35,521 nucleotides of DNA from the NCBI GenBank assembly GCA_944372725.1, contig CALWAA010000136.1:1-35521 (forward strand). The letters are read 5' to 3'. The position numbers and the translations under genes were made by a program. Source of the stretch: an uncultured Bacilli bacterium (lineage in GTDB: Bacteria; Bacillota_I; Bacilli_A; RF39; UBA660). Under the pieces are notes generated by a model, which was given only the letters and a program-made list of their open reading frames with translations, did no database searches and was not told the DNA's origin. Position 1 is the stretch's first letter, and each line of letters opens with the position of its first letter. Shown piece after piece: positions 16,310 through 17,962 of this stretch.

Positions 16310-16803
16310 ATGAGTACAGTAAAACAACAATATATTAGAAATACAGAAAATAATATAATCTCTCCTGTAACTTCTACAAAAAGTGTGTATACGGGGGGCA
16401 AGCCTTAAATAGTGTTTTAAGTAATTTGTATGAATCCAAAACACTATTTACAGGTTTAACATACGGTAATTTTAAAATAACAGATTATATGAGTAATTAT
16501 AATTTATTAAGAATAGATATACAAAATAATTCAAGTGTATTTGATGGACAACAATGTTTTAACAGTCATTTTATATGGGTAGTAGATGATGTACAATTTG
16601 CTATAAGTGGTATATTTTATATAGGTTCTACATATATGTATTTGTATAATACAGTTTTAAGTTTTGTAGGATTAAATGTAACACAGACTAATAATAATTT
16701 AATTAGAATACAACATAATATTAGTAATAGTACAAGTGCTGTTACTTCTAATGGTTTGTATATAAAATCTGTAGTAGGTTATAGAAAAATACAAAGTACT
16801 TAA
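16310..16803 (+). CDS. tail-fibre tip / receptor-binding protein 2, frame-disrupted at a G6 tract (OFF in this sequence; 164 aa if G7)
   Basis: An RBS (AAAGGAG) precedes ATG 16310, which reads MSTVKQQYIRNTENNIISPVTSTKSVYTGG and then stops at 16406-16408. The frame of the ORF-track ORF 16426-16803 is open back through the G-tract to 16354, and that ORF has no RBS. One extra G gives ...SVYTGGQALNSVLSNLYESKTLFTG... Confidence 0.75.
16393..16398 (+). repeat. poly-G tract (G6) inside tip gene 2
   Basis: The sequence reads acGGGGGGca. The tract encodes the Gly-Gly linker after the conserved N-terminal peptide, and G7 would restore the frame. Confidence 0.9.
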
Positions 16804-16855
16804 AAAAAATAATATTTATAATTATCTTTCTTATATAAGAAAGGAGTTATAAATA

Positions 16856-17332
16856 ATGTCAACACCAATAAAATATTTAAAAGATGAAAATGGAAATACA
16901 ATAAGTCCTGCTGTAAGTGTAGATAGTATATTCATACAGGGGGAGGTAAACTAGTTGACTACATATATCCTATAGGTAGTATTTATATGTCAGTTAACAG
17001 TACAAACCCTTCACAATTATTTGGACGGTACGTGGACTCAACTTAAAGACAGATTTTTATTAGGAGTTGGAGATACATATATAACAGTAAATAGTACTGG
17101 CGGGGAAGCCAGACATATATTAACAGAAGATGAAATGCCTGTACACCAACACACTAATAATAGTATTTATGCTACAACTCCTGGTACAGGTACTGTAATT
17201 GGAACAGCCGTATCGGGTGGAACTGGAACAGTAAACTGGTATGCGGATAATACAGGATTTCAAGGAAAAAATTATGCTCACAATAATATGCCACCCTATT
17301 TAACTGTTTATATGTGGAAACGTACGAAATAA
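16856..17332 (+). CDS. tail-fibre tip / receptor-binding protein 3 (tail-collar type), disrupted at a G5 tract and also carrying an in-frame CGG +1 site (158 aa if both are resolved)
   Basis: An RBS (AAAGGAG) precedes ATG 16856, which reads MSTPIKYLKDENGNTISPAVSVDSIFIQG and stops at 16952-16954. With G6 the reading continues GGGKLVDYIYPIGSIYMSVNSTNPSQLFG up to CGG 17026. Skipping the C gives GTWTQLKDRFLLGVGD...GGEARHILTEDEMPVHQH...NNMPPYLTVYMWKRT, a tail-collar / MdpB-like motif. The result aligns with tip protein 5. Confidence 0.7.
16939..16943 (+). repeat. poly-G tract (G5) inside tip gene 3
   Basis: The sequence reads caGGGGGagg. G6 would join the N-terminal peptide to the GKLVDYIYPIGSIY frame. 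Confidence 0.85.
17026..17028 (+). other. in-frame CGG codon at a +1 frame break (putative recoding site)
   Basis: The sequence is ttt gga CGG tac gtg gac tca act taa in the 0 frame. The +1 reading ttt gga (c)ggt acg tgg act caa gives FGGTWTQ, and the paralogue at 18003 has FGGTWE. Confidence 0.6.
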
Positions 17333-17409
17333 ATACATATAAATATAACTTATTTAAAAACAGGATATATAATTATAACTTCTAATAAATTTTAGGAGGT
17401 AATTATATA

Positions 17410-17962
17410 ATGGATGTAAAAAGTAAATATTTAAAAGATGAAACAGGTGAAGTAATTAGTCCTGTTGTAAGCACACAAACTGTATATGATGCCTCTGGAA
17501 ACACTTTGGGGGGGTATTGTACCTATTGGAACAGTACTTCCTTATGTAGGTAAAACTGCACCATTAAATTATTTATTATGTGATGGTTCAGTTTATAATA
17601 AAAGTGATTATCCAGAATTATATAATTTAATGTTAGCAAATTCTTCCATAGGAATTACAAATACAACATTTTATGTACCTGATTTAAAAGGAAGATTTGT
17701 TTTAGGTTATAATAGTGGTATTTATAATATAGGTGTAACCGGTGGAGAAGTAACTCATACTTTAACAGTTGATGAGATGCCTGCACATACTCACAGTTTA
17801 GCTATGCAAGCGGGAAATCAAACTGGAATAATAGATAAAATTTCTGTTAACGACTTTGTAAATTGTAATTGGTATTCACACGTGGAATACACAGGAGGAA
17901 ACCAACCCCACAATAATATGCCACCATATATAGTTTTAAATTATATAATAAGAGCCAAATAA
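17410..17962 (+). CDS. tail-fibre tip / receptor-binding protein 4 (tail-collar type), frame-disrupted at a G7 tract (OFF here; 183 aa if G6)
   Basis: An RBS (TAGGAGG) precedes ATG 17410, which reads MDVKSKYLKDETGEVISPVVSTQTVYDASGNTLGG and stops at 17551-17553. Removing one G gives ...TLGGIVPIGTVLPYVGKTAPLNYLLCDGSVYNKSDYPELY...GGEVTHTLTVDEMPAHTHS...HNNMPPYIVLNYIIRAK, a classic phage tail-collar pattern. The ORF-track start at 17486 has no RBS. Confidence 0.8.
17508..17514 (+). repeat. poly-G tract (G7) inside tip gene 4
   Basis: The sequence reads cttTGGGGGGGtat. G6 (or G9) restores the frame. Confidence 0.9.

Follow-up and report, generated by a model that had tools for sequence, protein, structure and literature searches.

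Poly-G tracts at the docking-peptide boundary as probable ON/OFF switches of alternative tail-fibre tips in an uncultivated phage

The DNA analysed here (contig CALWAA010000136.1 of GenBank assembly GCA_944372725.1, 35,521 nucleotides, referred to as the window) carries an array of six tail-fibre tip genes (15771-19335, 3.6 kb) in which runs of G differ in length between assemblies and probably switch alternative tips ON and OFF heritably. The array lies on the forward strand, as do all sizeable open reading frames (ORFs) of the window, and directly follows the gene of a 2072-aa coiled-coil tail fibre (9473..15691; ORF list, with Pfam and PHROGs coiled-coil/tail matches), the presumed carrier of the tips. 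Three of the genes are intact: tip1 (15771..16214, 147 aa, the identical protein being present on at least 20 contigs), tip5 (18003..18707, 234 aa) and tip6 (18817..19335, 172 aa). Tip2 (16310..16803) is frameshifted and OFF, its N-terminal 32 aa and a 125-aa downstream frame being joined when the intervening tract has four, seven or ten G's. Tip4 (17410..17962) is likewise frameshifted and OFF, and tip3 (16856..17332), of gp12/Gp10_C type, is doubly disrupted.

All six tips start with a common peptide of about 30 residues (x-K-Y-L-K-D-E-x-G-x-x-I-S-P-V-x-S-x-x-S-I-Y), followed by C-domains that are mutually unrelated. The Pfam family Gp10_C (PF21939) was matched by restored tip3 (E-value 3e-26), restored tip4 and tip5 (2e-31), and the Collar family (PF07484) also by tip4 (5.7e-13); all three matched tail-fibre PHROGs. 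The C-domains of tip1, tip2 and tip6 matched no family in the same search. A PDB profile search with tip4 homologues led to the receptor-binding domain of the T4 short tail fibre gp12 (1OCY, 1PDI, 5IV5), and 1OCY was also the best Foldseek match of a low-confidence model of ON tip4. This AlphaFold model (P0001; proteins and loci of other assemblies are cited by P and L numbers) had a pLDDT of 62, falling below 50 in the N-terminal peptide, and is uninformative on how the docking peptide acts. The profile and family matches indicate three T4 gp12-like collar/Gp10_C heads and three heads without a recognised fold, which would bind receptors. Tip5 is without a G tract and presumably constitutive.

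Five runs of at least five G's and no run of at least five C's occur in the window, and all five lie between 15725 and 18767, within the 3 kb of the tip array itself. Simulations with Markov models of order 1 and order 2 gave 0.13 and 0.01 expected runs of at least seven G's, against three observed, and no expected run of at least nine, against two observed. GGG accounts for 14 of 540 Gly codons (2.6%), and none of the 24 Gly-Gly dicodons of intact ORFs starts with GGGGG. The runs are not a product of chance, since there are only five in the window, all are in the tip array and their number is far above the Markov expectation. The first-pass annotation of this DNA had remarked on G-runs as conspicuous in such AT-rich sequence and had placed a G6 at 16393, a G5 at 16939 and a G7 at 17508, each behind the conserved N-terminal peptide; all were found there. 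It listed these three only and missed two longer runs, a G10 at 15725-15734 and a G9 at 18759-18767, in the leaders of tip1 and tip6. The coding tracts, termed g2 (G6, 16393..16398), g3 (16939..16946) and g4 (G7, 17508..17514), begin 83, 83 and 98 nt after the ATG of tip2, tip3 and tip4, and would form the exact boundary between docking peptide and C-terminal head. In the window g3 reads GGGGGAGG, that is, a G8 interrupted by a G-to-A change (G5 at 16939-16943); sister lineages have uninterrupted G7, G8 or G9, with G9 as the ON state.

Tract lengths were edited in silico and the resulting ORFs were read. Tip2 became a 164-aa ORF at G7 (also at G4 and G10), and tip4 a collar and Gp10_C (T4 gp12-like) tip of 183 aa at G6 or 184 aa at G9; neither gene has any lesion except tract phase. 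In the window, tip2 (G6) and tip4 (G7) are thus OFF, each one slippage step from ON. The earlier proposal that the C-terminal domain is out of frame in all three genes, and that G7, G6 and G6 respectively restore it, stands for these two genes and fails for tip3, in which the N-terminus and the C-domain share one frame, the 27 codons between them are shifted, and G6 yields an ORF that ends after 63 aa. No Shine-Dalgarno (SD) sequence of its own was read upstream of any downstream part, as had been claimed of their ribosome-binding sites (RBS).

Other assemblies were retrieved by exact-protein look-up of tip5, tip6 and tip1, and relatives were added by homologue look-ups. In some 20 further assemblies of this phage and its relatives all five tracts vary, the sequence elsewhere being almost identical. 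Haplotypes are given below in the order gA (tip1 leader), g2, g3, g4, gB (tip6 leader), with 5A for GGGGGAGG, 6A for GGGGGGAGG and a dash for no value. The window has 10, 6, 5A, 7, 9. The haplotype 10, 6, 5A, 8, 9 was read in L088, L091 and L103 (and in L118 without gB), 10, 6, 5A, 10, 7 in L090 and L093 (the latter without gA), 8, 10, 6A, 8, 9 in L089 and L092, and 9, -, 5A, 9, 9 in L094 and L095, with -, 6, 5A, 7, 9 in L107 and L108 and -, -, 5A, 7, 10 in L096. L087 has 9, 6, 7, 8, 8; L106 has 9, 8, 8, 7, 8; L099 has 8, 8, 7, 9, 9; and L100 has 10, -, 8, 7, 8. The haplotypes of L109, L110, L114 and L097 are 10, 9, 9, 9, 9; 9, 9, 8, 9, 9; 9, 9, 7, 9, 8; and -, -, 9, 9, 10. Observed lengths hence span 8-10 for gA, 6, 8, 9 or 10 for g2, 5-6 (interrupted) or 7-9 for g3, 7-10 for g4 and 7-10 for gB.

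Natural ON alleles are among these. Tip2 is ON, with 165 aa at G10, in L089 and L092. Tip4 is ON at G9, with 184-194 aa (cluster P0001, 14 members), in L094 and L095 (184 aa), L099 (192 aa), L097 (194 aa) and L098. Tip3 is ON at G9, with 162-188 aa, in L109 (162 aa), L097 (188 aa) and L246-L248. Over 2.2-3.7 kb, near-identical pairs of assemblies are set apart by 0-3 substitutions and have all their indels in the tracts, two to five of which differ: the window and L092 are separated by three substitutions and four tracts, L090 and L092 by two substitutions and all five tracts, and L088 and L096 by no substitution and two tracts. Within the near-identical group the A8 run at 16802-16809 is constant. 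From these counts of substitutions, indels and tract differences it appears that, per site, the tracts change orders of magnitude faster than ordinary bases.

The tracts are also maintained over larger distances. Full-length tip4 homologues of 45-97% identity (P0001, P0003-P0005, P0007, P0008, P0010, P0011, P0013, P0018, P0020) all read ...G-N-(T/P)-(L/M)-G-G-G-I-(V/I)-P..., and at the DNA level the site is a G9 in five loci (L094, L097, L098, L099, L241). Because GGG is kept in these diverged homologues though it makes up only 2.6% of Gly codons, the tip4 tract appears to be under selection. The same layout recurs in distant relatives, namely L146 and L242-L244 (IMG/VR contigs of 137-196 kb, 26-30% G+C) and L241, which have docking-peptide genes with G8-G10 at the module boundary together with a G8-G9 leader tract. 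L146 and L242-L244 were found by an extended docking-peptide pattern; the KYLKDE 18-mer alone was swamped by chance matches. At the site of the G9 or G10 of L243 and L244, one gene of L146 has no tract (T-G-E-G-Q-P) and represents a 'locked-ON' allele. The ratio of nonsynonymous to synonymous substitution rates (dN/dS) of the downstream domains was 0.09-0.18 for tip2 (few changes) and 0.26 for tip4, which shows purifying selection on the switched domains.

Tip3 departs from this pattern in the window lineage. Besides the interrupted tract it contains an extra C at 17026..17026, a second frameshift, where the window reads TTTGGA-C-GGTACGTGG and intact alleles read TTTGGAGGAACTTGG. This C is shared by all assemblies of the window-like lineages (window, L087, L089, L094, L096, L099, L100, L106). 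Five tip3 C-domain variants (P0121, P0123, P0126, P0128, P0176) are known, all as fragments of 91-103 aa beginning just past the frameshift; in the window, L087, L099 and L100/L106 types the frameshift itself was verified in the DNA. In the L109 lineage, which also has the extra C, a change some 22 nt further on compensates for it (F-G-R-Y-V-D-T-M-A...), and tip3 is full-length at G9. Intact G9 alleles without the extra C occur in P0122 and P0124, in L246-L248 and also in the L097 type. For the tip3 C-domain, dN/dS was 0.10-0.20 when the window, L087 and L100 types were compared with one another and 0.5-0.6 when L099 was one of the pair; the same bases read in wrong frames gave 0.8-1.4. Because of the interrupted tract and the second, fixed frameshift, tip3 of the window lineage looks like a locked-off or decaying copy that tract length alone cannot turn ON; the simplest reading is a locked-off mosaic whose C-domain diversity was imported by recombination. 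In sister phages the alleles indicate a normal G9 switch. The notion of poly-G length as a DNA-level ON/OFF switch is strongly supported for tip2 and tip4, by their polymorphism and natural ON alleles, and not for tip3 of the window, and the three switches with eight combinations first proposed give way to two working coding switches and two variable leader tracts.

The mechanism we propose is that G's are gained and lost, most likely by slipped-strand mispairing during replication of the phage DNA, and that each change of length would move the receptor-binding domain into or out of frame, giving a full tip (ON) or a docking peptide of 30-48 aa only (OFF). The leader tracts would probably tune translation of tip1 and tip6. 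A phage population would then hold mixed tip repertoires, a form of bet-hedging against variation of the host receptor.

Several observations weigh against this mechanism, and some of them are what plain pseudogenes would show, in which decaying tip genes had accumulated tract differences by neutral slippage in dead DNA. The polymorphism was read between assemblies, at contig level; the BRZ_, ONAT22 and Logan ERR4096xxx records probably share reads, which leaves fewer independent observations than contigs. About one third of the tract states are in frame, as neutral drift also predicts. Further decayed copies exist, so that some OFF copies are not live switches: tip3 of the window lineage has an interrupted tract and a second frameshift, the latter fixed in all window-type and related assemblies, tip4 of L087 has a CAA-to-TAA nonsense change at the equivalent of window position 17807, and tip4 of the L109 lineage is cut to 105 aa (L109, L110, L114, L115) though its G9 tract is in frame. 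General decay is nevertheless improbable. The only lesion of tip2 and tip4 is tract phase, with intact ON alleles in sister assemblies; the downstream domains have dN/dS values of 0.1-0.26; the tip4 site stays Gly-Gly-Gly down to 45% identity, every allele read from DNA being uninterrupted G against both AT and codon bias; and dead DNA would lose its tracts, as has begun in tip3 of the window. Sequencing or assembly artefacts, by which homopolymer errors would fake frameshifts in genes that are truly in frame, have next to no probability in our estimation. Poly-G of 8-10 is error-prone, and three short contigs (L093, L107, L108; left ends at window 15778, 15740 and 15843) start 10-113 nt from the G10 leader tract; such ends may reflect within-sample heterogeneity or sequencing drop-out at the tract, heterogeneity being suggested for gA only. 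In sample BRZ_BV the genome contig breaks within the tip array. Random homopolymer error is not the main cause, however, because identical five-tract haplotypes and the OFF lengths of the window recur across samples and assemblers: g2=6 was read in at least nine contigs, GGGGGAGG in at least 12 and g4=7 in at least six, the haplotype 10, 6, 5A, 8, 9 was read in four assemblies, and g4=10 with gB=7 in two runs. Differences of three to four G's occur as well (6 vs 10; 7 vs 10), and A/T runs in the same alignments are without indels.

Under programmed recoding, ribosomes would shift frame or transcription would slip at the tracts as a fixed property, always with a short and a long product, as in the tail chaperone G/GT, in place of switching at the DNA level. 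On a G-run tRNA-Gly can re-pair in the -1 frame, and homopolymers can make RNA polymerase slip. In tip3 the second frameshift falls at GGA-CGG, CGG being the rarest Arg codon (1 of 211) and the setting a classic one for +1 frameshifting; the five tip3 C-domain variants occur as fragments past it, and the types in which it was confirmed have low dN/dS (0.1-0.2, or 0.5-0.6 with L099). A recoding signal would keep one fixed, conserved out-of-frame arrangement, whereas tract lengths were found in all three phases with in-frame DNA alleles common, and tip2 and tip4 require opposite shifts, the argument that the first-pass annotation had already raised against a single ribosomal frameshift. A conserved stimulatory element was not found, nor was there a match in Rfam. 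As intact tip3 alleles lack the extra C and recombinational import of C-domains can explain the low dN/dS, recoding is very unlikely, and a +1 ribosomal frameshift at GGA-CGG in tip3 became less likely once those alleles had been found; transcriptional slippage, too, is not needed to explain tip switching. A somewhat better case can be made for recombination junctions, with the docking peptide and poly-G as the crossover point for C-domain cassettes and frame switching as a side effect. Near-identity upstream of the tip4 tract gives way to divergence right after it (L097, L099), and in tip3 a conserved N-terminal and middle segment is followed by mosaic C-domains. This idea leaves unexplained the tract variation among otherwise identical genomes, the conserved non-coding leader tracts and the choice of G's; we consider it unlikely as the whole explanation, and it is compatible with poly-G switching rather than exclusive of it. 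Heritable poly-G ON/OFF switching of tip2 and tip4 is well supported, because of tract polymorphism, natural ON alleles, tract conservation and purifying selection, and the wider account of six alternative tips with heritable switching is the probable one. Replication slippage as the cause, reversibility within a lineage, the receptor-binding role and any effect on host range are inferences.

The two leader tracts lie outside coding sequence. Tract gA (G10, 15725..15734; elsewhere 8, 9 or 10) lies 36 nt before the tip1 ATG, and gB (G9, 18759..18767; elsewhere 7, 8, 9 or 10) lies 49 nt before the tip6 ATG. In leader A a first hairpin, H1 (15704..15730), pairs the C-rich arm CCTCCCATTAG with CTAGT and the first six G's of the tract; it was found by folding and has compensatory changes between lineages (ATTAG/CTAGT, AACAG/CTGTT, and TGGATA/TATCT in L241). 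In silico, a second hairpin, H2 (15731..15755), pairs the spare G's and TATGTT (15731-15740) with AACATATCCC (15746-15755), and a third, H3, pairs ATATCCC (15749-15755) with the SD region GGGATAT (15761-15767). Leader B has the same arrangement on the same strand: in H1 (18737..18763), obtained by folding, CCCTCTAATG pairs with CATTA and the first G's of the tract, L099 having a compensatory change (TAAC/GTTA) and L100 a changed loop; in H2 the spare G's and TAGTT (18764-18772) are predicted to pair with AACTACTCCC (18784-18793); and in H3 CTACTCC (18786-18792) is predicted to pair with the SD region GGAGTAG (18805-18811).

Both leaders fold better than shuffled sequence (z = -4.0 for gA and -4.6 for gB). 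The pairings were checked by hand with duplexfold; the MAFFT alignment (A4) had misaligned the anti-RBS segment between families. Duplex energies were -9.8 to -12.9 kcal/mol for H2 with four spare G's, -7.6 to -10.6 kcal/mol for H3 and -3.8 to -8.6 kcal/mol for H2 with two spare G's, and in all eight elements of four families (gA, gB, the L146 type and L241) H2 was stronger than H3 with four spare G's and at most equal to it with two. In a ViennaRNA titration of gA the SD was closed up to G9 and open from G10 in every context folded, and likewise in L094 and L100; for gB the position of the step varied with the flanks, from G9 to G12, and one context showed no step. Dinucleotide shuffles of the spacer reached the observed length effect in 0 of 400 cases per element. 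As a caveat, the SDs of tips 2-5 are also predicted to be largely paired, and no Rfam family was matched. We tentatively propose that gA and gB are length-read riboregulators, a second, translational kind of poly-G phase variation that would act in cis through mRNA folding. About six G's would be held in H1 by the C-rich arm; those beyond, with the 3' flank, would pair in H2 with the anti-RBS segment, which otherwise would hide the SD of tip1 or tip6 in H3, so that about ten G's or more would open the RBS and a shorter tract would close it. Observed leader lengths of 7-10 straddle the predicted threshold. Should this hold, five of the six tips could be turned ON or OFF independently, and the leaders would represent a new translational mode of homopolymer phase variation. 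A 12-codon upstream ORF starts at an ATG at 15736, 1 nt past gA, with its AUG in the H2 stem, and its TGA overlaps the tip1 ATG (ATGA) and ends at 15774; it could be a translational-coupling device for tip1, and it varies little among relatives. In a 202-kb lineage (L097 6787-6795, G9; L098 692-699, G8) the gene in the tip1 position has a coding tract (..SVFVGGG..) that replaces the leader tract. Tip6 of L099 is split into 101 + 76 aa (L099 9428-9947), and L107 and L108 have a 220-aa variant of tip5.

The window has 27% G+C and represents the structural region of a large phage, with a major head protein, a maturation protease and two fibre genes of about 2050 aa each. The closest cultured capsids are those of the Bacillus SP-15, Listeria LIS04 and Streptococcus GXN1 myoviruses, at only about 30% identity. 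The array had no megablast match among the 50,697 phage records of INPHARED, and a search for related loci with the 782-aa fibre in IMG/VR found nothing. This second fibre gene (19392..21740, forward strand) follows the array, and its product has an N-terminus like that of the 2072-aa fibre; the common motif MK.K..RC.S..L...P..DGQ..YVKDT.E.YLDV (window 9473-9600 and 19392-19520) suggests a common baseplate anchoring site for the two fibres. Phage genomes of 202 kb and 220 kb (L120, CALXZC010000001.1, and L119) are deposited under the metagenome-assembled genome (MAG) labels 'uncultured Clostridia bacterium' and 'uncultured Bacilli bacterium', and are probably phage contigs binned as bacteria. 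The host is probably a low-GC member of the Bacillota, the only hint being the MAG label. Elsewhere in the window, a perfect 10-bp tandem repeat (TATAATTACA) with -10-like boxes occupies 23604-23671, just 5' of an ORF at 23672-23980; TRF counted 6.8 copies, and the full copies number six in the window vs three in L087 and L088, a second kind of variable repeat. The lowest G+C (18%) and a reversed GC skew occur at 31001-32000, within an ORF resembling a head maturation protease (30410-31924), and tandem repeats of 21 and 42 bp lie in the same region, at 31229-31411. Among the structural genes, 24840-25523 encodes a nucleotidyltransferase-domain protein (PF01909) and 28319-30154 an LPD11-domain protein (large polyvalent-protein-associated domain 11).

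Phage populations with alternative receptor specificities are also produced by the Mu G and P1 C inversions and by the BPP-1 diversity-generating retroelement, which work by site-specific inversion or mutagenic retrohoming, unlike the tracts described here; no invertase, inverted-repeat crossover site or reverse transcriptase was seen in the window. Bacterial poly-G/C contingency loci (Campylobacter, Haemophilus, Neisseria, Helicobacter) have in common with tip2 and tip4 a 5' tract in a surface-interaction gene, ON/OFF control by frame and combinatorial loci, and in tip2 and tip4 of the window a 5' tract, length polymorphism and an intact ON phase were all found, as was, in tip4 homologues, maintenance of the tract by selection. 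They differ in that the window tracts are carried by a virus, with a host that is probably a low-GC Bacillota (MAG label only). For the leader tracts the best analogue is the tlpB leader of Helicobacter pylori, in which a variable G-repeat pairs with the C/U-rich small RNA RepG and its length sets translation (PMC8295292). Both have a variable leader G-repeat and a C/U-rich partner; the partner is a trans-acting small RNA in Helicobacter, whereas here it is CCUCCC/CCCUC in cis, with a predicted competition of three hairpins over the SD. Simple sequence repeat contingency loci have been described in T2/T4 genes such as agt and extended to other phages (Gomez, Barrick and Waters, bioRxiv 10.1101/2025.10.21.683753). 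They resemble what is proposed for the tip array in homopolymer slippage, reversible high-frequency frameshifts and bet-hedging, and differ in being mostly poly-A in counter-defence and other genes, such repeats being under-represented in coliphage tail-fibre genes (bioRxiv 10.1101/2025.10.21.683753), whereas the tracts of the window phage are poly-G, are confined within the window to the tip array and appear to be kept by selection.

The nearest parallel is with Campylobacter phages, as the first-pass annotation had suggested; the switching is of the same kind, in an unrelated phage clade. To our knowledge, phase-variable receptor-binding proteins (RBPs) have been shown experimentally only in Campylobacter phages, in which two of four RBPs are reportedly phase-variable, and poly-G tracts are said to have been noted in more than 100 phage genera. 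Hypermutable poly-G in RBP genes of Campylobacter Fletchervirus phages is attributed to Sorensen et al. (2021, Cell Rep 35:109214) as cited in PMC10579305, PMC10877375 and bioRxiv 10.1101/2025.10.21.683753. Like those, the window phage is AT-rich and large, with G tracts inside tail-fibre/RBP genes whose length toggles the frame and would give a mixed population. In Fletchervirus NCTC12673, no G/C run of at least seven occurs within the first 50 kb. The two phages have no sequence relation, as there was no megablast match, the capsid relatives are Bacillota phages and no Campylobacter phage is among the tip4 matches listed. Since the window phage is unrelated to the Campylobacter phages, it appears to be a convergent case of an already known kind of switching, in an uncultivated clade of 130-200-kb phages that probably infects low-GC Bacillota and turns up in many metagenomes. 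For annotation this would mean that the many tail-fibre genes that appear 'fragmented' in such assemblies represent switch states, missed by gene callers, and not errors. The common docking peptide, tract and exchangeable gp12-like heads would form a compact natural system in which combinatorial bet-hedging of host range can be tested. Compared with Fletchervirus, the window phage, known here from its sequence, is distinguished by an array of six paralogues, tracts fixed at the boundary of docking peptide and head and maintained across the clade, and two non-coding tracts in predicted, conserved leader hairpins.

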